The notes under the pieces: model-generated
The model's database searches: none
Told to the model about the DNA's origin: nothing
The model's input: only the letters and a program-made list of their open reading frames with translations
Shown here: piece after piece, positions 9,644-62,456 of the stretch
Layout: every line of letters starts with the position of its first letter
Numbering within the stretch: position 1 is the first letter of the stretch
Translations under genes and position numbers: made by a program
Assembly: GCA_963664705.1 (NCBI GenBank)
Contig: OY761556.1
Location: forward strand, 4,064,001-4,128,000
Direction: 5' to 3'
Source: Acidobacteriota bacterium
Lineage (GTDB): Bacteria > Acidobacteriota > UBA6911
Length of the DNA stretch: 64,000 nt

Positions 9644-9728
9644 GATTGACGATTTGCGATTGACGATTGTGAACCACCGTGGGAAGCGCGCGGGTACGAT
9701 CGTCAATCGCAAATCTGCAATCGTCAAT
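9644..9728. repeat. Inverted pair of GATTGAC/GATTTGC heptamer arrays between convergent genes
   Basis: GATTGAC GATTTGC GATTGAC GAT on the left; its reverse complement ATCGTCAATCGCAAATC at 9699-9715. Confidence 0.75.
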
Positions 9729-11085
9729 TCTGGAATTCAGATTTCCTCTGATCTATCCTCCGCGTCATCCTTGAATAGATAAACAGCGCGACTGCCGACA
9801 CCAGCCCGATTGCGGCAAAGTAATACCAGATGTAATTGGCATGGGCATATGCCGTAGCCATCTGTTCCGGAATTACTGTTTTCGGATCGGGGCAATATTT
9901 TGTCAAAAGATACCCGGAGAGTCCAAAACCGAGGAAATTGGCAATAAAGGAGTGCAAATGCCCGAATCCCAGATACAAGCCTTCCTCGCCGCTGGGAGCC
10001 TGCTTGGAAAAAAACTCGAGGTAACGTGGAGAGATGAAGCACTCTGCCAACCCCTGGAGAATAATACCGGCAATAAGCGTCACTGTAATTGGATGCGCGG
10101 CGATACCGAACGGAAGCAACACAGGAGACCCCAGTTTCGCTTCCAGCAACGGACTCGACGCCATGCAGAGCGCAGAAAATGGCATCAGGCACATGCCAAT
10201 ATTCATCGCTGTAACAGCGGCGGATTTTTTCATGAGTTGCGTAATCACCACAACACAGAGTACGACCACCGCCGGATTGACATTTGCAATCCACTCCGGG
10301 GAGGCGTCCCTCCCGACCAGTCGGATTACGTATTTGGGCATGGTTGCGTACATCTGATGCTGGATCATCCAGAACCCGGACACAATCAGAATCAGTGTTA
10401 CGAGTCGAGGATTGCGCAGGACCCGGAGCAGGCTGGTCCAGACCTCCTTCAACCTCTTCCCTTCCCCTTCGGCGCTGACGTTCCGGTAAAAGAGAAAGAC
10501 AACCAGTACGGCAATAAAACACAGGATTGCGGAAAAGTAGTTGATGGATTCCAGCCCCAGGTTAAGTCTCAGCGGATAGGCCATGGATTTGCCCGAAAAG
10601 GATCCCACATTGACGATGCCATAAAATATGGAGTACGCCCGTGCGCGCTGGTCTGGAGTGGAAGTCTTGGCAACGGTCCCCGTGATAAGCCCCTTTATGA
10701 AGGATCCCCCGATGATGAGAATCACGATTGACGGAACAACCGTCAATTTGTGGGGAATGGCACCGAGCGCAAAGAAACCGAGAGAAAGCAGGCTAAAAGC
10801 GATGAGCATCGCGCGGCGAAACCCGAGCTTATCTGCAAACGCTCCCGTAAACGGCGGCAGGAAATAGACACCGGCCGAGTAAAATCCGGAGAGCCAGGCG
10901 GCCTCGACATCATTGAAACCGACAACATTTGAGAGGTACAGCGTAAAAGTGATGAAGACAGCATAAAACGAGGCCCGTTCCAGCAGCTCGACGGTATTGG
11001 CTATCCAAAAGGCTGCCGGAAAATCCCACGATATTTTTCCGTCCACTTCGTTCCTTTCATTGGCAATAGGGTCCGGATCCTGCAC
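9724..11085 (-). CDS. MFS transporter, POT/PTR peptide-transporter-like
   Basis: ELLERASFY (ExxERxxFY motif), GAFADKLGFRR, AYSIFYGIVNVGS; about 12 hydrophobic segments. Confidence 0.85.
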   Translation of the reverse strand: MQDPDPIANERNEVDGKISWDFPAAFWIANTVELLERASFYAVFITFTLYLSNVVGFNDVEAAWLSGFYSAGVYFLPPFTGAFADKLGFRRAMLIAFSLLSLGFFALGAIPHKLTVVPSIVILIIGGSFIKGLITGTVAKTSTPDQRARAYSIFYGIVNVGSFSGKSMAYPLRLNLGLESINYFSAILCFIAVLVVFLFYRNVSAEGEGKRLKEVWTSLLRVLRNPRLVTLILIVSGFWMIQHQMYATMPKYVIRLVGRDASPEWIANVNPAVVVLCVVVITQLMKKSAAVTAMNIGMCLMPFSALCMASSPLLEAKLGSPVLLPFGIAAHPITVTLIAGIILQGLAECFISPRYLEFFSKQAPSGEEGLYLGFGHLHSFIANFLGFGLSGYLLTKYCPDPKTVIPEQMATAYAHANYIWYYFAAIGLVSAVALFIYSRMTRRIDQRKSEFQN

Positions 11086-18246: not shown

Positions 18247-18534
18247 GCCTGATGCAACATGTTATTGGTTGGCCGCTGGATTTCAATGCCAACCAACTAT
18301 CGTCGCATGCGCGACAGTCCAGGGTTCCCCAAAATCCGCTACTGCGAACACCGGCGCCTCGCTTAATGCTGCAATACAAATCATAGGGGCGGTCAGAAAA
18401 TAGACAGGGGTTCGCTGCGCTCACCCCTGGTAGAGATAACCGCGAGAAAGAGCTTCCAAGGTTCCTTGGGCAAATAACATGCAGCTTAGGCGTCTCGCCG
18501 GCAGGGGCGAGGCTGCTTCCCTGGCGCTCCCAGT
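18247..18534. repeat. Degenerate copy (A) of the TIR/REP composite repeat
   Basis: Imperfect ends GCCTGATGCAACATGTTATTGG / CAAATAACATGCAGCTTAGGC, internal hairpin CAGGGGTTCGCTGCGCTCACCCCTGG (18405-18430), and trailing GCGCTCCCAGT. Confidence 0.6.
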
Positions 18535-32210: not shown

Positions 32211-34375
32211 TGTTGAAATTCAGACTCCCCAGCTTTGCCCGTGAGGATCGATCTAAGCTTGCACTCCGGCAGCGCTGCATTTCTCCGCTGGCCTGTATTC
32301 ACATCGCCCTGATCGCTCTTGCCGGATTGGGATCCTACGCGCAACAGGTAGGACAGAATACCTCAGGCCGACAGTCCGCGCCGACCTTCCAGGTCAGTAC
32401 CCAACTTGTAATTGAGACAGTTACGGTAACGGATAAAAACGGAGCGCCCGTCGAAGGACTCAAGTCGGACGATTTTGTTATCACCGAAGATGGCGCACCA
32501 CAGGACATCAGTGTCTTTGAGCATCAGAAGCTCGAGGATGCAGCCACCGCGCCCCCTCCACCATTGACGACACGGGCGGTGCCGCTGGCAAGATATCCGC
32601 GTTCACAGATCGCAGCGGAATCGGCAGGAAAGATCCGATATCATGACCGACGGCTTCTCGTGCTCTACTTCGATATGGGAGCCATGCCGATTCCCGACCA
32701 ATTACGCGCATTTTCCGCTGCCGATAAATTTGTCCGAACCCAGATGACGAAGGCCGATTTGATGGCCATCATGATGTACGATGGCGGGAGTGTCCGGGTT
32801 CTCCAGGATTTTACCGCGGACCGAGACCGTATCCTTACCATCATCGAAACGCTTGCGGTTGGGGAAGACCAGAATTCCGATGACATATTGGCTGATGCCG
32901 ATTCCGGACCCGCCTTCGGACAGGACGACAGCGAATTCAATATCTTCAATACCGACCGGCAGCTGTCGGCCCTTCAGACGGCAGCAAAAATGCTCGCCTC
33001 ATTGAGTGAAAAGAAGGCTCTGGTGTACTTCTCGAGCGGCCTTCGGCTGAACGGCGTCGACAACCAGGCCCAACTGCATGCAACCATCAACGCCGCCGTT
33101 CGCGCGGGAGTATCGTTCTGGCCCATCGACGCTCGCGGACTGACCGCGGAAGCTCCATTGGGAGATGCCACGCGCAGCGCGCGCGGCGGAGCAGGGATGT
33201 ACTCCGGAGCAGCAGCTGCCGCGATGATGAGCAGTTTCCAGCACTCGCAGGATACCCTGTGGGCACTGGCTTCCGATACCGGCGGCAAAGCGCTGCTGGA
33301 TTACAATGACCTCTCTCGCGGCATCGCCCAGGCGCAACACGCCATCTCGAGTTACTACATTCTCGGCTATTACACCACCAACCAGAATCTCGACGGCAGA
33401 TTCCGCCGCATCAAAGTGGCGTTGAAAAACGGCATCGCGGGATCACTCGACTACAGGCAGGGATATTATGCCCGTAAACAGTTTGGCAAATTCACCGCCG
33501 CAGAAAAGGAACGCCAACTGGAAGATGCCCTGATGCTGGAAGATCCCGTTACGGATCTTACGATCGCCATGGAAGTGGATTACTTCCAGTTGAACCGGGC
33601 AGAGTATTTTGTGCCGCTGATTGTCAAAATCCCCGGCAAGGAATTGGTCCTGGCTAAACGCGGCGGAGCCGACCGCACGCTGCTCGACTTTATCGGCGAA
33701 ATCAAAGATGAATATGGCGTAACTATTTCCAATGTACGGGATAAGGTGGACATCAAGCTGAGCGATGCCACGGCCTCAGAGCTGGCAAAACGGCCGATCC
33801 AGTACGATACCGGATTTACACTGCTTCCCGGCAAGTATCGGCTGAAATTCCTGGCCCGAGATGCAGAAACGGGCCGCATAGGAACTTATGAAATGTCCTT
33901 TGTCATTCCAAACCTGAACAAGGAAGACAAACGGATACCTATCAGTTCCGTGGTTCTCAGCAGCCAGCGCGTTGAGCTGCGTGACGCGTTATTCAATGCG
34001 TCAAAGGACAAAGGATTGAACGACTCGGTTAACCCGCTTGTGCAGGAGGGGCAGAAACTGATTCCCAGCGTTACGCGCGTATTCAGCCGGGAACGAAACA
34101 TGTATGTATACCTGCAGGCGTATCAACAGGGAGCGGATGCAGCCCATCCGCTTGTTGCCTATGTCAGCTTCTACCAGGGACAGACGAAGACATTCGAAAC
34201 CCAACCGATCCTGATTACCGAAGCGTTGAACAATCGGCTCAAGACCATGCCCGTCAAGTTCGACCTCCCACTCCGCAATTTGCCGCCGGGAGAATATAAG
34301 CTCCAGGTTACAATTACCGATTCGTCGGGGCAAAAGGCTGCATTTTGGCAGGCGCCCGTTGTTCTGATACCATAG
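32198..34375 (+). CDS. VWA domain protein (acidobacterial VWFA-related, TIGR03436-like)
   Basis: F.VSTQLV...VTDKNG.PV.GL..DF, KALVYFSSG, PIDARGL, LA.DTGG, YYILGYY, DGRFRRIKV, YRQGYYA. Confidence 0.9.
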   Translation: MEILVLKFRLPSFAREDRSKLALRQRCISPLACIHIALIALAGLGSYAQQVGQNTSGRQSAPTFQVSTQLVIETVTVTDKNGAPVEGLKSDDFVITEDGAPQDISVFEHQKLEDAATAPPPPLTTRAVPLARYPRSQIAAESAGKIRYHDRRLLVLYFDMGAMPIPDQLRAFSAADKFVRTQMTKADLMAIMMYDGGSVRVLQDFTADRDRILTIIETLAVGEDQNSDDILADADSGPAFGQDDSEFNIFNTDRQLSALQTAAKMLASLSEKKALVYFSSGLRLNGVDNQAQLHATINAAVRAGVSFWPIDARGLTAEAPLGDATRSARGGAGMYSGAAAAAMMSSFQHSQDTLWALASDTGGKALLDYNDLSRGIAQAQHAISSYYILGYYTTNQNLDGRFRRIKVALKNGIAGSLDYRQGYYARKQFGKFTAAEKERQLEDALMLEDPVTDLTIAMEVDYFQLNRAEYFVPLIVKIPGKELVLAKRGGADRTLLDFIGEIKDEYGVTISNVRDKVDIKLSDATASELAKRPIQYDTGFTLLPGKYRLKFLARDAETGRIGTYEMSFVIPNLNKEDKRIPISSVVLSSQRVELRDALFNASKDKGLNDSVNPLVQEGQKLIPSVTRVFSRERNMYVYLQAYQQGADAAHPLVAYVSFYQGQTKTFETQPILITEALNNRLKTMPVKFDLPLRNLPPGEYKLQVTITDSSGQKAAFWQAPVVLIP

Positions 34376-34503
34376 CTTCAGGAGATCGCCATGAAACTCC
34401 ACGCCTTATGTGGAATCATGGAAATTTGAGGTACACGCAAATAAGAGTGAACGAAATGACGCTCCGTCATCACTATATATGCAGAAGCGGAGGAATAACT
34501 TAT

Positions 34504-35520
34504 ATGAAACGCCTGATTAGATTCGCCTGCGTAATCCTGGTTCTTTTTGGCTCGATCCAACTATGCACATCCCGGCTGAATGCCCAAGGCCGCTTCGGGG
34601 ACAGGAATGACCAACCGCGCGAAGGCGTCTGTTTCTACACCGATGAAAATTATCGCGGCGAAAGCTATTGCGTTAACGCCGGCGAAAGCCGCCAGAATCT
34701 CGGAGATCGATTCAACGACCGCTTCTCCTCCGTCCAGGTGTTTGGAGGAGCCCAGGTCGTCGTTTACCAAGATGACAATTTCAATGGCCCCAGAACAACC
34801 TTCGCCAGCAATATCAGCAACTTGAGGGATTGGAATGACAGAATTTCGTCCTTCCAGGTTTCGGGAGGTCGCCAGTCGGGAGGCTTGTTTGGCGGGCGTC
34901 GCTCAGACCGACCCTTTGACGACGAAGCCAGAAATCGCGGCAACAAGCCCCGCAATGGTGTCTGCTTCTATACCGATGAAAATTATCGCGGCGAAAGCTA
35001 CTGCGCAGAAACCGGAGATAACCGGCGCAATGTGGAAGACCGGTTCAACGACAGGTTCTCTTCGCTGCGTATCTTTGGAGGAGCCCGCGTTGTTGTTTTT
35101 GAGGACGAGAATTTTGGCGGGCCAAGCACGACCTTCACAAATGATATTCCCAATCTGCGCAGCTGGAACGACAGAATTACCTCGTTCCAGGTTCTCGGAG
35201 GCCGCGGTGGATTCTTTGGCGGACGCCCTTCCGATCGGGATAACGGCAATTGGGGCAGAGGCAACGAACCGCGCAACGGAGCCTGTTTTTATACCGATGA
35301 GGACTATCGCGGGGACAGGTTCTGCGCTGAAACCGGGGGAAACATACGAAATGTAAGGGATCGCTTTAACGACCGGATCTCCTCAATACGTGTGTTTGGC
35401 AGAGCCCGGATCATTATCTATGAGAATGAAAATTTCTCCGGTGCCAGCAGAACATTCAATAGAGATGTTCCCAATCTGCGAGGCTTCAACGACAGGATTA
35501 CCTCCATTGAAATTCGTTAG
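34504..35520 (+). CDS. Secreted protein with three beta/gamma-crystallin domains
   Basis: Three repeats of G.CFYTDE.YRG..C and six (F/W)NDR(F/I)(S/T)S Greek-key motifs. GGAGG RBS before ATG 34504. Confidence 0.85.
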   Translation: MKRLIRFACVILVLFGSIQLCTSRLNAQGRFGDRNDQPREGVCFYTDENYRGESYCVNAGESRQNLGDRFNDRFSSVQVFGGAQVVVYQDDNFNGPRTTFASNISNLRDWNDRISSFQVSGGRQSGGLFGGRRSDRPFDDEARNRGNKPRNGVCFYTDENYRGESYCAETGDNRRNVEDRFNDRFSSLRIFGGARVVVFEDENFGGPSTTFTNDIPNLRSWNDRITSFQVLGGRGGFFGGRPSDRDNGNWGRGNEPRNGACFYTDEDYRGDRFCAETGGNIRNVRDRFNDRISSIRVFGRARIIIYENENFSGASRTFNRDVPNLRGFNDRITSIEIR

Positions 35521-35534
35521 ACCGGAAGCACCGG

Positions 35535-35738
35535 CACTGGGAGCGCCGCCGGAGCAGCTAATGCCGCATATTATTTGTCGAGGATGAAGCCCTTTTGGAG
35601 ACAGCTGAGGATGCCATCGCCTTTGGCTTTTATGGTTTTCCAGGGCGGCAGCAATCTGCCACACTCCACGGTTCCCATTCGGGCGCAACTTTTTCTAAAT
35701 AATATGCGGCATTAGCCCGGGTGGAAGCGCTCCCAGTG
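35535..35738. mobile_element. MITE-like element (copy B): 160 bp with perfect 20-bp inverted ends inside a REP-like palindrome
   Basis: GCTAATGCCGCATATTATTT (35557-35576) / AAATAATATGCGGCATTAGC (35697-35716), nested in CACTGGGAGCGC (35535-35546) / GCGCTCCCAGTG (35727-35738). Confidence 0.65.
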
Positions 35739-35745
35739 GGCTTAG

Positions 35746-35797
35746 TCTGGAATCTGGAATCTGGAATCTGGAATTTGGAATTTGGAATCTAAAATCT
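35746..35797 (+). repeat. (TCTGGAA)n heptamer tandem array
   Basis: TCTGGAA x4, TTTGGAA x2, TCTAAAA. Confidence 0.9.
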
Positions 35798-36617
35798 ATC
35801 TCGGATCGTAATTCAAAAACAGCCGCTCATGGCGATCGAAGGTGCCATCCCACAGGTGGAAGACAAAACCGGAATCGATCGCCACGCAACCTTTTTGCGC
35901 AAGGCGAGCCAGAACCAGCGGAGCGCCGATCCCCGCGCCTACAAGGGCAATATCGATTTTTTCGTCGATATGGAGATCGAAATTGCCGTGTGCCACGCCT
36001 GATTCCGGAATCTCAAAACAGCGGACATCCCGAATCTCCATGCCCTGAAGGGTGTTCATGATGGCATCGGAATTCTTATTCTTGAAACTGGTGATGAGAG
36101 CGACGCGGCAATTCTGCAAACGTCGAAGAAAGATCGGATGCACCAGCAGCGCGTACACGAAATAAAAGGGGGCATAGTTGCGCAGCGGCATGCCATGCTG
36201 AGCCAGGAAATCCGTGAACTTGGACTGAAGCCCCAGATATACGAGATTCAGGTTCGGACATAGAACTCCATTCTCGTAAATCGTTCGAAGAGCCTCGACA
36301 TGGAGCCTCTCTACGCCGTCATTCTTCAGGCTGCTGCGACGCTCTCCCCAGCAGGTCGTTGTCGTCTTACCCGAATAGAAGCTGTATTCGCCATCGCAGA
36401 ACCGTGCGATCGGCATATATCGCGGGTTATCCAGCGCCTGAAGCACATGGTTCAAAAAGGAGTCAAACAGGACCTGATCCGAAATTCCCTTGGGCAGCAG
36501 GATCGTACACTCCGCCTTGCGCGTTTCCAGCTCTTTCGAAAACCGCTGAAAGTGAGGCGTGTTGTCATAATGCTTCAATTCAAGAAAACGGAATTCCACA
36601 GTTGCCGCATTGCTCAT
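35796..36617 (-). CDS. Putative GT-D-fold-like glycosyltransferase
   Basis: IARFCDGEY resembles the RxGDGE motif of GT-D/DUF1792; DIALVGAG and AIDSG also fit. Last gene of a glycosyltransferase operon. Confidence 0.55.
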   Translation of the reverse strand: MSNAATVEFRFLELKHYDNTPHFQRFSKELETRKAECTILLPKGISDQVLFDSFLNHVLQALDNPRYMPIARFCDGEYSFYSGKTTTTCWGERRSSLKNDGVERLHVEALRTIYENGVLCPNLNLVYLGLQSKFTDFLAQHGMPLRNYAPFYFVYALLVHPIFLRRLQNCRVALITSFKNKNSDAIMNTLQGMEIRDVRCFEIPESGVAHGNFDLHIDEKIDIALVGAGIGAPLVLARLAQKGCVAIDSGFVFHLWDGTFDRHERLFLNYDPR

Positions 36618-36652
36618 TGGTATTTTCCCGCCGAAAGATCGTCCTTCCGGTC

Positions 36653-37618
36653 CTAGTGCATTGTATTCCCGAGCCTGGCTTCCAGTTCTTCCCAATATTT
36701 ATCCGCCGTGCGCTCATAGATGGCAGTGTTTTTGAGATCGAGCTTCCAGGAAGTTGCTCCGACCCTGTCATTCACAATAATGTTGCAGCCACACAAGGAT
36801 GCCTCCGCCACAATCAGACCAAAAGGTTCCGGCCATCGCGGCACGTGGATATAATTCTGCGTCCGATTCAAAATGGTTGGCATCATCTCGCCGGGGACCG
36901 CACCCAGCCAGTGTCCATCTCCTTCTTTTACCAGATCCGGAGTGTGCCCCCCGATAAAAATAACGCTCCCCCGCGGGAAGTGCTGCATGATGTTGTGATA
37001 GCCTTTAGCCTCGCCCTGGCCTCCATAGCTAAGCAGCGCAATATCCCGCTTGAGCTTCATGTTGCGAAACCGTTCTGCATCCACGGCGGGAAGATACAGC
37101 ATGGTTTTTTCGTTCGGGAGCACATCGTTTCCTAAAGCGCCGGAATGAACATCCCGGTGAAGCGGTGAAAGGAACGAGCAGGCAATCGCATTCGCATAAA
37201 GCGGCTTTGCCCGTGCGATAGAACAAAGACCCGGCTTGACGTGGCAATCATGCCCGTTGACTCCAACTCCATTGCAGGGAAGATTGTCGCGTCGGCAAAG
37301 ATCTACATAGGCATTGTCGTGGTGGATATAAGGCAGCTTCCCACGAATAACCGAATCCACCAGCGACTCAATCGGTCGCTTCAGGTTCATGGGGCAGTTA
37401 TACACATCGCATAGATACCACAAGTCCGGATTTTCGTGCAGATCGCAACCATCCCGTGAAGCTATCTTGATATCGTGCCCCCTGCGCTTTGCCGCATCCA
37501 GCAGTTGGCGCATGACCTGCTCTCCCCCGCCCCCATAGATATAGGGATCCAGGTGGGCAAGATAGTTGATCCGCAGCTTCAGAGAGCTTCCGGTCTGATC
37601 ATCAGGCGCATTGTTCAT
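36653..37618 (-). CDS. Glycosyltransferase family 4 (GT-B) with Cys-rich insert
   Basis: GGGEQV, AKG, EPFGLIVAEASLCGC. Start at ATG 37618, overlapping the upstream stop. Confidence 0.82.
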   Translation of the reverse strand: MNNAPDDQTGSSLKLRINYLAHLDPYIYGGGGEQVMRQLLDAAKRRGHDIKIASRDGCDLHENPDLWYLCDVYNCPMNLKRPIESLVDSVIRGKLPYIHHDNAYVDLCRRDNLPCNGVGVNGHDCHVKPGLCSIARAKPLYANAIACSFLSPLHRDVHSGALGNDVLPNEKTMLYLPAVDAERFRNMKLKRDIALLSYGGQGEAKGYHNIMQHFPRGSVIFIGGHTPDLVKEGDGHWLGAVPGEMMPTILNRTQNYIHVPRWPEPFGLIVAEASLCGCNIIVNDRVGATSWKLDLKNTAIYERTADKYWEELEARLGNTMH

Positions 37619-39475: not shown

Positions 39476-41611
39476 ATGAGACATTCTCCCGCTTTGGTTC
39501 ATTTTCCTGGCGCAGGCATAGGGGCAAGGCTGACAGCCGCCGTGCGCCCTGCGGCTGCCGCTTTTGCTGTCATCGCGATGATGCTCTTTCTGGCAATGCC
39601 TCAATGCATCTTTGCGGAAGACATTACACTGCTATGGGATCCAAATACCGAATCGGATCTGGCGGGCTACAAGATGTATTACGGCATGGCCTCCGGGAAA
39701 TATGGATCGCCGATTGTGGTGGGCAAGAACACCACCTACACATTTGCAGGTCTGCCGCCAGGAACCTATTTCTTCGCAGTCACTGCATACAGCACGAGTG
39801 GGCAGGAAAGCGGTTTCTCCAATGAGGTCACGACAACTGTTTCAGGAACAATTTCCATCCCGGTCGTATCGATCGTTTCACCGACTACCGCCGCGACATA
39901 CAACGCAATAACCGAGACTCTGAGTCTCAGCGGTACGGCCAGCGACAGCGTCGGGATTGCGTCTGTCACATGGGCAAGCAGCAGCGGAGGCAAGGGGACC
40001 GCCGCCGGCACTACCGCCTGGACCATTCAGGGAGTCCCGCTTCAGGCAGGAGCAAACACCATCTCCGTCACGGCCAATAACATATCGGGATCTGCAGGCA
40101 GCGCATCGCTGATCGCTAACTACACGCCCCCTTCCATCGACACAACAGCCCCTTTCATCTCCATATCCTCGCCGACCACAGCGGGGACATACAGTACGGA
40201 CAAGCCATCCCTGAGTATCGGCGGCACGGCCTCCGACAATGTGGGAATAGGCGAAGTCTCATGGTCAAACAGCGGAGGCGGCCGTGGAATCGCAGCCGGA
40301 ACCAACTCATGGTCCATTCTGGATATTGCGCTGATTGCCGGAACTAATGTCATAACAGTGATCGCAAAAGATCCCGCCGGAAACACGGCAACAGCCGTGC
40401 TCCAGGTGACCTATACCGCCGACAATATCGCGCCCGCGGTGGCCATCCGTTTGCCAACCACATCGGCGAACTATGCAACCAATACGGCTGTATTGGATAT
40501 CAGCGGAACAGCCTCCGACAATGTCGGCGTTACGGAGGTTACCTGGTCAAACAGCGCCGGCGGCAGCGGGAGCGCAACCGGAACAACCGCCTGGTCCGTC
40601 TCCGGTATAACACTGGCGCCCGGCAGCAATTCCATCACCGTCACGGGAAAGGATGCCTCCGGCAATAAGGGCACCGCCGGCCTGTCGGTTACATTCGACA
40701 ATAAAGCGCCTGTCATCAGTTCGGTGACAACCACATCTATCAAAAACACGACCGCCACTGTGACGTGGTCGACCGATGAATCATCGGACAGCCAGGTCGA
40801 ATGGGGAATAACCACCACCTACGGCTTTGTTAGCGCGTTGTCCTCAATCATGACCGCTTCGCACCTTCAGTCCCTTGACAATCTGACGGCAAACACCACC
40901 TATCACTTCCGGGTAAAATCCCGGGACACGGCAGGCAACCTGTCAACATCCTCCGATTACACTTTTCGGACCACCAACCAGATGGATATTTTGACCGGCC
41001 TGGTGGCGGCATACGGATTTGACGAAGGAACCGGAACCAGTACTGCGGACGCTTCCGGCAATGGAAGAACGGCGACTCTGTTTAACGGAAGTTGGAGCAC
41101 CACCGCAAAATTCGGGAAAGCACTCTCTTTCAATGGACACAACTCCTATGCCCTGGCTCCCAGCGGTGGATTGCCGGCCACGGGCGCCCAACAAACAATC
41201 GCCTATTGGTGGCGAACGACCCAGAAAGTCACGGACACGGAATCGATCGTTGCGCTCTTCAGCAATTCGCCACGGGCTGCCGTGCAGCCGGGTTTTAAGG
41301 ATTCCCTTATTGGTGCCATGCAGGACGGAAATGTCTGGTTGGTTGCCGGGGTGCAGCCGGCCACCAAGACATGGCATCACCTCGCCTATACCTTCGATGG
41401 GCGTATACACAACCTCTATCTGGATGGCCAGCTGATGAGCACTTCAACGATAGCTCCCGTTTTGGCCAGTCCGACGATGTTCGTGATAGGCCGCGCCGGC
41501 AACAGCACCCAGTACTACAAAGGCATCATTGACGAGCTTCGAATCTACAATCGCGCGCTCAGCCTGCCGGAAATCCAGGCTCTGATGACATCCGCGATTA
41601 ACGGGAAGTAA
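39476..41611 (+). CDS. Secreted Fn3 + 3x Ig-like + Fn3 + LamG (jellyroll) surface protein
   Basis: WDPNTESDLAGYKMYYG, repeated SGTASDNVG..V.W.NS.GG.G.A.GT..W, LVAAYGFDEGTG, WHHLAYTFDG, G.IDELRIYNRALS; very Ser/Thr rich. Confidence 0.88.
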   Translation: MRHSPALVHFPGAGIGARLTAAVRPAAAAFAVIAMMLFLAMPQCIFAEDITLLWDPNTESDLAGYKMYYGMASGKYGSPIVVGKNTTYTFAGLPPGTYFFAVTAYSTSGQESGFSNEVTTTVSGTISIPVVSIVSPTTAATYNAITETLSLSGTASDSVGIASVTWASSSGGKGTAAGTTAWTIQGVPLQAGANTISVTANNISGSAGSASLIANYTPPSIDTTAPFISISSPTTAGTYSTDKPSLSIGGTASDNVGIGEVSWSNSGGGRGIAAGTNSWSILDIALIAGTNVITVIAKDPAGNTATAVLQVTYTADNIAPAVAIRLPTTSANYATNTAVLDISGTASDNVGVTEVTWSNSAGGSGSATGTTAWSVSGITLAPGSNSITVTGKDASGNKGTAGLSVTFDNKAPVISSVTTTSIKNTTATVTWSTDESSDSQVEWGITTTYGFVSALSSIMTASHLQSLDNLTANTTYHFRVKSRDTAGNLSTSSDYTFRTTNQMDILTGLVAAYGFDEGTGTSTADASGNGRTATLFNGSWSTTAKFGKALSFNGHNSYALAPSGGLPATGAQQTIAYWWRTTQKVTDTESIVALFSNSPRAAVQPGFKDSLIGAMQDGNVWLVAGVQPATKTWHHLAYTFDGRIHNLYLDGQLMSTSTIAPVLASPTMFVIGRAGNSTQYYKGIIDELRIYNRALSLPEIQALMTSAINGK

Positions 41612-42990: not shown

Positions 42991-43035
42991 TCCGGAATCC
43001 GGAATCTGGAATCTGAAATCTGAAATCCAAGATCC
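42991..43035 (+). repeat. (TC[C/T]G[G/A]AA)n heptamer array between convergent genes
   Basis: TCCGGAA x2, TCTGGAA, TCTGAAA x2, TCCAAGA, immediately after the stop codon. Confidence 0.85.
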
Positions 43036-45905: not shown

Positions 45906-46212
45906 TTCCAGATTCCAGATTCCAGATTCCAGATTTCGGATTCCAGACCGCTATTGCCTAATGGTATTGGCTTTGTCGCAATTGCCGTTCTTTCGCCCCC
46001 TTCAGGGCTCCTATTATGCTTCATTCCTACCGGGGGTTCGCAAAAAGCGCTCACCCCCGGCTACCTGCTTTCGGCCCTCCGGGCCTGGTGCTTCGCTCGC
46101 GTCCCAGGAATTAGGACAAATAATATGCAGCTTTAGCCGGAATGGCAGCACGCCCGGAATACTCCCCGGTCTTGGTCTGGAATCCGGAATCTGGAATCTG
46201 GAATCTAAAATC
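45906..46212. repeat. Composite repeat copy C bracketed by inverted heptamer arrays
   Basis: (TTCCAGA)n 45906-45947; REP module 45991-46103; end motif AAATAATATGCAGCTTTAGCC 46118-46138; (TCTGGAA)n..TCTAAAA 46176-46210. Confidence 0.8.
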
Positions 46213-46273
46213 CTGCATTGCCACAAAACGCCTGCTAGTGTATGGATATCACACATGAGGAGAGGACTCCGAT

Positions 46274-61903: not shown

Positions 61904-61958
61904 ATCCTAGCTTACACATTATCGTTTATCAATATATATTTATCGTTTATCAATATAT
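61904..61958 (-). promoter_or_regulatory. Promoter and tandem operator of the DUF2975-HTH operon
   Basis: Direct repeat TTATCGTTTATCAATATAT at 61919-61937 and 61940-61958, overlapping TTGATA-17 bp-TAGGAT on the minus strand. Confidence 0.7.
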
Positions 61959-62217
61959 CGCAAGAACGAATCTGAAGCTGGCGGCGCCAAAGCTCCGCCG
62001 ACATATGACGAAGGCCTGGAATGAAGCGGGGTCCACTGGAATACCGATGTCTCGATGCTGGATGATATTTGCTCAAGGAGCAAGGAATCGCGATGCATAT
62101 CCGGCCCGGAGGGGCGATCAGAAAGTAGACATAATGGAGTGATCGGTCTCTAGCATGTAATATCGTGGGTTACAGCTGAAGTCGCGGTGACAGAAGCTGC
62201 AGAGCCATAAAACATGA

Positions 62218-62456
62218 GGGGTGAAGCGCAGCGGACCCCTGGATTGGATTAGGCCGGCAAATAACCCTGAAGGGGCGGCAGAATGCCGATCTTTCGCCCT
62301 TTCAAAGCCCTTTCCCACGCTTATCTTTACCAGGGGTTCGCTGCGCTTCACCCCTGGCTGCTCGCTTTCGGCCCTCCGGGCCTGGTGCTTCCCTCGCGTC
62401 GCAGGGCTCAGAACAAATAGTATGCGGCATTGGCCGGGACGGGACGTTCCCAGTGG
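62218..62456. repeat. Composite repeat copy D: inverted REP doublet plus end motif
   Basis: GGGGTGAAGCGCAGCGGACCCCTGG / CCAGGGGTTCGCTGCGCTTCACCCC; a 37-bp block nearly identical to copy C; AAATAGTATGCGGCATTGGCC..TTCCCAGTGG. Confidence 0.8.

Follow-up and report, generated by a model that had tools for sequence, protein, structure and literature searches.

A non-coding segment of about 160 bp, bounded by a perfect inverted repeat, raises the question of whether it is a mobile element and, if so, what moved it and where such elements insert. The initial annotation of the 64,000-nt stretch of DNA that contains the segment (hereafter the window) had described IS4-like 20-bp inverted ends nested inside a REP-like palindrome, and had proposed a family of non-autonomous elements. 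We followed up this proposal in the window, in the whole genome (one contig, 6.89 Mb, 98% complete), in related genomes, and in metagenomes. Comparison of these sequences makes it very probable that the segment, which we delimit at 156 bp, is a non-coding MITE with insertion-sequence ends of the IS4 subgroup, likely moved in trans by a matching transposase that is now absent from the genome. The features of the locus and of the other copies in the window are collected in Table 1.

Table 1. Coordinates of the element, its flanks and neighbours, and the other copies in the window.
Feature	Coordinates	Strand	Basis or remark
Left neighbour ORF, three beta/gamma-crystallin domains	34345..35520	+	converges on element
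Left flank, target REP 5' half	35535..35558	+	degenerate close to junction
Whole MITE, class 1, 156 bp, non-coding (copy B)	35559..35714	+	alignment to other class-1 copies
Left terminal inverted repeat, IS4-subgroup type, TAATGCCGCATATTATTTG	35559..35577	+	register set by duplications in other copies
Class-1 left subterminal linker (L1)	35578..35596	+	
Degenerate cargo REP, left doublet member	35597..35620	+	alignment to other class-1 copies
Cargo REP, right doublet member	35645..35667	-	REP family flanks Y1/HUH transposase gene in relative L289
Class-1 right subterminal linker (R1)	35668..35695	-	
Right terminal inverted repeat	35696..35714	-	end search
Right flank, 5' half of second target REP	35715..35738	-	mirrors left flank
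Linker plus (TCTGGAA)n array	35739..35797	-	likely remnant of third MITE subfamily (T3), own end lost
Right neighbour ORF, GT-D-like domain	35796..36695	-	converges on element; stop codon overlaps array end
Copy A, solo degenerate class-2 end (L2)	18471..18489	-	weight matrix
Copy C, solo class-2 end (R2) in T3-type array-linker-REP module	46117..46135	-	array 46176-46213
Copy D, 380-bp class-2 MITE (L2/R2), GTAG-type REP cargo	62053..62432	+	left end degenerate, duplication lost

The perfect 20-bp inverted repeat was located at 35557-35576 and 35697-35716, and the 20-mer has four matches in the window at ≤3 mismatches versus none in 100 shuffles. The repeat is real, but its first two bases (GC) belong to the target REP, and the element itself starts at the T of TAATG. 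We set the boundary there because the base two places outside it varies with the REP variant, and because related IS4 elements differ beside the end. A CTAATG register with a 9-bp duplication was rejected, as E. coli IS4 and ISAcma16 differ at that base and have 12- and 11-bp duplications. The 12-bp arms reported around the segment are likewise present, at 35535-35546 and 35727-35738, but they are two mirror-image REP 5' halves and not the arms of one REP.

The right-end motif had been reported to recur at 18471, 46118, and 62415. We verified all three sites, and we found the flanks of copies A to D and the differing interior of copy B to be as described. The ends at 46118 and 62415 each carry two mismatches to the 20-mer; the end at 18471 is more degenerate, being missed at ≤3 mismatches and scoring 18 with a weight matrix (threshold 16). 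Copy D proved to have a degenerate partner end at 62053, absent from the initial annotation, which gives a 380-bp element.

A search of the whole genome for the 20-bp end had been suggested, and it showed that the motif extends far beyond the four window sites. The end has 129 matches at ≤4 mismatches, with none for reversed and complemented controls, and the weight matrix identified 158 ends, with none for the reversed matrix; 100 of the 158 are unpaired. By the DNA inside them, the ends were sorted into classes L1 (19), R1 (12), L2 (51), R2 (37), T3 (9), and other (30). The nearest inward pairs were of matched class in 20 of 27 cases (7 L1+R1 and 13 L2+R2), and this matched pairing therefore points to defined elements with distinct left and right ends. 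The family has the characteristics of MITEs: its members are short and non-coding, with terminal inverted repeats and many dispersed copies. When the window MITE is aligned to five further full-length class-1 copies of the genome, identity ranges from 104/142 to 124/151 bases, so we regard the family as old. We also observed head-to-tail tandem arrays of whole MITEs, with a period of ~350 bp or 94 bp and apparently split by the duplicated target, in the same genome (C1:1384389-1385972, 1457786-1458629, 5461528-5462528, and 5973588-5973844).

Beyond this genome, the end motif (≤2 mismatches) is present in 9 of 24 same-genus genomes, two of them with a single weak match, and a variant end pattern has matches in 11 of 50 same-family genomes. 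Records titled Acidobacteriota (L015, L016, and L024) hold the same kind of element. An exact 18-mer scan of genome contigs returned 22 loci, mostly chance-looking and without REP flanks.

The initial annotation saw no transposase in the window and suggested looking for a copy that encloses one. A DDE (IS4-family) gene does lie within these ends, in metagenome contigs. Our metagenome scan for the end gave at least 123 loci, many of them short. Among the 123 listed loci, 14 have a long ORF with an IS4 motif (two of these are one element), and tblastn matched the partner transposases in 27. Twelve distinct elements have both ends around a transposase gene, seven of 1516-1553 bp and five of 1903-1924 bp, and at two loci (L129 and L150) the transposase is enclosed on both sides by the exact 18-mer of this genome. 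The partner transposase is an IS4-family protein of ~460 aa with DDE and YREK motifs, encoded in elements of 1.5-1.9 kb. All three partner proteins tested scored above the cut-off of the IS4 profile NF033592. D118, D198, and E307 are invariant across six aligned proteins including E. coli IS4 (D-80-D-109-E), within the D(60-110)D(100-150)E spacing of the family, and the Y-2-R-3-E-6-K motif aligns with that of E. coli IS4 (Y300, R303, E307, and K314). YREK is found in all 14 listed metagenome ORFs, which were chosen on the R, E, and K part of it. Identity of the partner proteins is 24-27% with E. coli IS4 and with ISAcma16, and 41% with a Singulisphaera IS4. Ends from metagenomes and relatives match -AATR--------WTW fully, and the variant in this genome departs from the consensus at position 15, with A instead of T. 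E. coli IS4 begins with the same 8 bases; together with the IS4-family transposases between the same ends, this bears out the description of the ends as IS4-like. In the 1.9-kb autonomous elements, a DUF6788 ORF also lies upstream of the transposase gene, on the other strand (L173 56-619 and, by sequence likeness, L150). At L126 13-2079, a class-2-like MITE encloses a 354-aa ORF whose motifs resemble those of an IS110-type transposase.

No matching transposase was found anywhere in the genome itself, in agreement with the proposal of a non-autonomous family. A PF13006 profile search of the genome gave none, as did tblastn with 14 partner proteins (E≤0.01) and a protein search. The sole PF01609 match, an IS1634-family protein with different ends, is not the partner. 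The clade transposase was not found in seven other end-carrying genomes of the genus. One of 50 same-family genomes (G057) has a close relative of the transposase, in three copies, at 47% identity and with one in-frame stop; the ends of this IS differ from those of the MITEs in the same genome. PF13006-type IS4 elements of G014 and G064 were rejected as partners, being just 21-25% identical to the partner proteins, and so were 49 DDE/IS4 loci of relatives, none of which has these ends around the gene. The MITE family is likely dead in this genome.

Where do these elements insert? REP targeting, as initially proposed, is well borne out: 94 of the 158 ends adjoin a GC-rich REP arm, versus 0.8% of random positions, and young copies in the same-family genome G057 lie at the centre of one REP hairpin. 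Intact target hairpins number 41 in this genome. At 5 of 50 Y1 loci the Y1/HUH gene lies between inverted copies of the target hairpin, and 1 of 30 DDE control loci holds any copy of it. Because it flanks Y1/HUH transposase genes in this manner, we regard the hairpin as a REP-type repeat. The claim that one REP class is targeted is correct for this genome, but across metagenomes several GC-rich hairpin classes are used.

The initial annotation saw no clear target duplication. This is true of the window copy, but the family does make a duplication of 11-12 bp. The related IS of G057 lies at the centre of the target hairpin with an exact 11-bp duplication in all three copies, and the MITEs of that genome have an exact 11-bp duplication in 10 of the 19 with both ends (from 20 examined of 53 listed sites). 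Nine metagenome IS have readable flanks: four have exact 11-12 bp duplications, one has a near match, two are mirror-image, and two are neither. The four exact cases are in four different hairpin centres, each of another sequence. Among 74 short elements outside this genome (a set that includes three spurious pairs from within the IS of G057), 31 have direct duplications at ≤1 mismatch, 4 are mirror, 37 are neither, and 2 are too short. Since REP halves resemble each other, we treat near matches as weak evidence and exact matches of differing variants as strong evidence. In this genome, an exact duplication is present in 3 of 27 pairs, all class 2, and the other 24 are without one. Class-1 elements have a duplication in no pair of this genome, an exact one in G017 (L053), and one with a single mismatch in L136 and L141. 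At the window copy, the flanks compared directly differ at 5 of 11 positions, and we counted it as a rearranged family member. We found no empty allele of the window site among the matches listed in 29 same-genus genomes, nor in further sequence sets: X1 and X3 contain the whole stretch and may be where this DNA came from, X5 matches pieces of it at identity, and X8 has almost none of it. A Syntrophomonas record (L005) holds two ~130-bp elements (1089-1219 and 2164-2294) whose end is that of this family plus several further bases in common with class 1; on either side of each element lie 16-bp flanks from an unrelated palindrome, in mirror image.

The cargo is variable, as the initial annotation had it, with five main interiors among clustered short elements. 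Class 1 accounts for 24 elements and class 2 for 22; a further 19 have a hexamer array (G057), 12 have another palindrome doublet, and 10 are of a fifth, palindromic type. The REP doublet inside class-1 elements belongs to a family unlike the target; this family flanks a Y1 gene in 1 of 50 loci (L289), and 2 of 30 controls hold a copy. The class-2 cargo REP flanks a Y1 gene in 1 of 50 loci (L002) and occurs in none of 30 controls. The class-2 interior corresponds to both flanks of the genome's single Y1 gene with the gene omitted (77% over 146 nt and 74% over 100 nt). GTAG-type REPs lie on both sides of that Y1/HUH gene (C1:1439678-1440420; L002 1259-2000). A degenerate class-2 IS4 end stands before the downstream REP, at the customary distance, with no clear end on the opposite side of the gene. 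None of the 50 Y1 loci has IS4 ends around the whole Y1 gene at ≤3 mismatches.

Cargo REPs lie close to the ends throughout this genome. GTAG-REP matches are <300 bp from an end in 92 of 143 cases, and class-1 REP matches are near an end in 51 of 113, where noise alone should give 21 matches. Random positions yield a baseline of 1.6%, not corrected for intergenic position, and intact target REPs (8 of 41) provide a fairer one. For L1 ends with a REP in range, the spacing from end to REP is 37 nt in all 10; it is 47 nt in 7 of 11 R1 ends and 78-82 nt in 31 of 34 class-2 ends. Because this spacing is fixed, we favour one capture per class followed by spread of the unit. Beyond the ends, the MITE interiors share nothing with 14 autonomous copies (blastn, E≤0.01; three spurious G057 pairs aside), and an origin of the interiors by internal deletion of the IS was rejected for this reason. 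We give slightly less than even credence to a broader reading, in which one hairpin-seeking IS4 clade would have taken up, time and again, complete REP doublets from HUH systems unrelated to each other, as well as short tandem arrays, between its 19-bp ends. Much REP spread in this lineage would then have been DDE-driven and not RAYT-driven, with REPs carried by MITEs into other REPs.

The TCTGGAA array, which occupies 35746-35797 at this site, had been considered coupled to the element. This did not hold: of 80 arrays genome-wide (≥3 units), 57 are >100 bp from any end and 23 are within that distance (sensitive end set; random baseline 0.7%, uncorrected). The array is an independent genome-wide heptamer repeat that one MITE subfamily, T3, carries. 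T3 elements are ordered as end, array, linker, target REP, and often a second end, and the right flank of the window element continues in matching order. Elsewhere in the window, we observed a TCTGGAA array at 42991-43028, 3 kb away from the nearest end, an inverted GATTGAC array pair and a TTATC-rich repeat, also of heptamer type (9644-9736 and 61919-61958), and a 711-aa ORF that contains three repeats of ~95 aa (39476-41611).

We propose that the transposase would recognise the 19-bp ends, excise the MITE there, and insert it over the centre of the hairpin, with the interior REP doublet copied along as a unit. At this locus, a class-1 element would have inserted into a REP inside a T3 element that carried the TCTGGAA array. 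Recombination between two insertions, or an adjacent deletion, would then have brought together a left end from one site and a right end from a second, and the window copy is likely such a hybrid with no duplication left. One could instead take the mirror-image flanks as the primary product, made by a transposase that attacks the stem which two inverted REPs form and removes the loop at the same time. Mirror flanks do recur, at L183 (0 mismatches in 11), at L148 (1 mismatch), in the 4 mirror cases among the 74 short elements, and in both Syntrophomonas copies. We nevertheless consider this very unlikely, given that direct duplications are far commoner in the same 74 elements and that the window flanks mirror each other poorly next to the junction, differing at 7 of 11 positions. 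Duplications are known to be lost when copies recombine or when adjacent DNA is deleted, both in general (PMC11708052) and in hybrid copies of ISRm22 (PMC1525189), and metagenome contigs of multicopy IS can be chimeric.

A different agent is conceivable, namely RAYT-type HUH strand transfer that built and spread the short elements by inserting REP doublets, repeatedly, beside dead IS4 ends, which would be passive relics. All three REP families flank Y1/HUH transposase genes, and the genome retains a Y1 transposase and no IS4-clade transposase; the unpaired majority of the 158 ends also fits. Such a process does not account for the fixed end-to-REP distances, however, and complete REP-carrying elements have IS4-type 11-bp duplications, which HUH transposases are not known to make. 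We judge it highly improbable. Extremely improbable, in our estimate, is a host regulatory element that is not mobile in origin, such as a bidirectional terminator or RNA hairpin. The site lies between convergent ORFs and the segment folds strongly (z = -4.7), but folding follows from the inverted ends, and the same ends bracket transposases elsewhere. Rfam gave no match anywhere in the window, and the two flanking genes never occur together among the listed matches in 29 genus genomes. The element may still have a secondary effect on transcription.

Several parts of this picture have precedents. ISRm22 of Sinorhizobium meliloti (IS4 family, IS4Sa) has all its copies in REPs, at the palindrome axis (Tobes and Pareja 2006, PMC1525189). 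ISRm22 and the present family share IS4-family membership and REP targeting at the palindrome axis, and some ISRm22 copies are hybrids with no matching duplication, but ISRm22 is autonomous, has a reported 6-bp duplication, and belongs to IS4Sa. In the present family the ends are of the AATG type, the duplication measures 11-12 bp, the target is another REP class, and MITEs with REP cargo are abundant. De Palmenaer et al. 2008 (PMC2266710; ends and duplication in Table 1) give subgroup IS4 the ends -AATR--------WTW, a duplication of 10-13 bp, a size of 1400-1650 bp, and DDE plus YREK. Subgroup IS4, including E. coli IS4 and ISAcma16, shares the end consensus, duplication range, DDE, and YREK with the partner elements, which are thus probable members. 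Some partner elements, at 1.9-2.1 kb, exceed the size range in that table. Some subgroup members have strong target-arm specificity. IS231/MIC231 elements likewise have IS4-family ends around extra DNA (PMC2266710); these are of another subgroup with other ends and carry gene cargo, where the present elements carry REP doublets and short tandem repeats. REPINs and BIMEs with their RAYT or TIRYT HUH transposases offer a parallel (PMC3733652, PMC3337134), in that the target and both cargo repeats likewise flank Y1 genes inverted; unlike REPINs and BIMEs, the doublets here are bounded by DDE-transposon ends with an IS4-type duplication. An internal tandem repeat, as in T3 and the G057 hexamer MITE, is reported for a minisatellite MITE of Porphyromonas gingivalis (PMC4596501), with another repeat and another host.

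An IS4-family element that targets REPs (ISRm22) and IS4-family ends around additional DNA (IS231/MIC231) are thus already published, and MITEs, REPINs, and hybrids are known kinds. The less ordinary point is that several unrelated REP doublets are carried within the same IS4 ends. Our literature searches found no paper on this family, and a catalogued IS with these ends may exist. The 12-mer TAATGCCGCATA was absent from the searchable literature, and searches on MITEs, Acidobacteria, IS4, and REP returned solely unrelated IS6 work. A repeat that ranks among the most frequent in the intergenic DNA of this genome, with its 158 ends, is hereby assigned to a definite transposase clade, with end, target, and duplication defined, and nesting explains how mosaic BIME-like regions build up. 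If the capture reading is true, REP copy number in some bacteria would reflect DDE transposition as well as RAYT activity, which would bear on models that treat REPINs as purely RAYT-replicated. Insertion at a hairpin centre with 19-bp ends is also an easy system for studying structure- versus sequence-based target choice.

Two other mobile elements of the genome are associated with these MITEs. A second IS of 1.84 kb, with a 490-aa open frame whose best match (IS701-type NF049999) is below the cut-off, lies in a small hairpin within the class-2 MITE interior. It has an apparent 13-bp duplication at three sites (C1:6055923-6057765, 220263-222105, and 2210232-2212074; L344) and a fourth end, at 2525136, also in such a hairpin. 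For IS701, Table 1 of PMC2266710 lists a duplication of 4 bp, by comparison with which 13 bp is long. An IS1634-family element (C1:6057793-6059434; L001 and L344) lies between two MITE ends, and its right flank repeats 22 bases from about 2.1 kb upstream of the element, which suggests a long variable duplication that was later rearranged. IS1634-type ends number ~23 in the genome, many of them unpaired.
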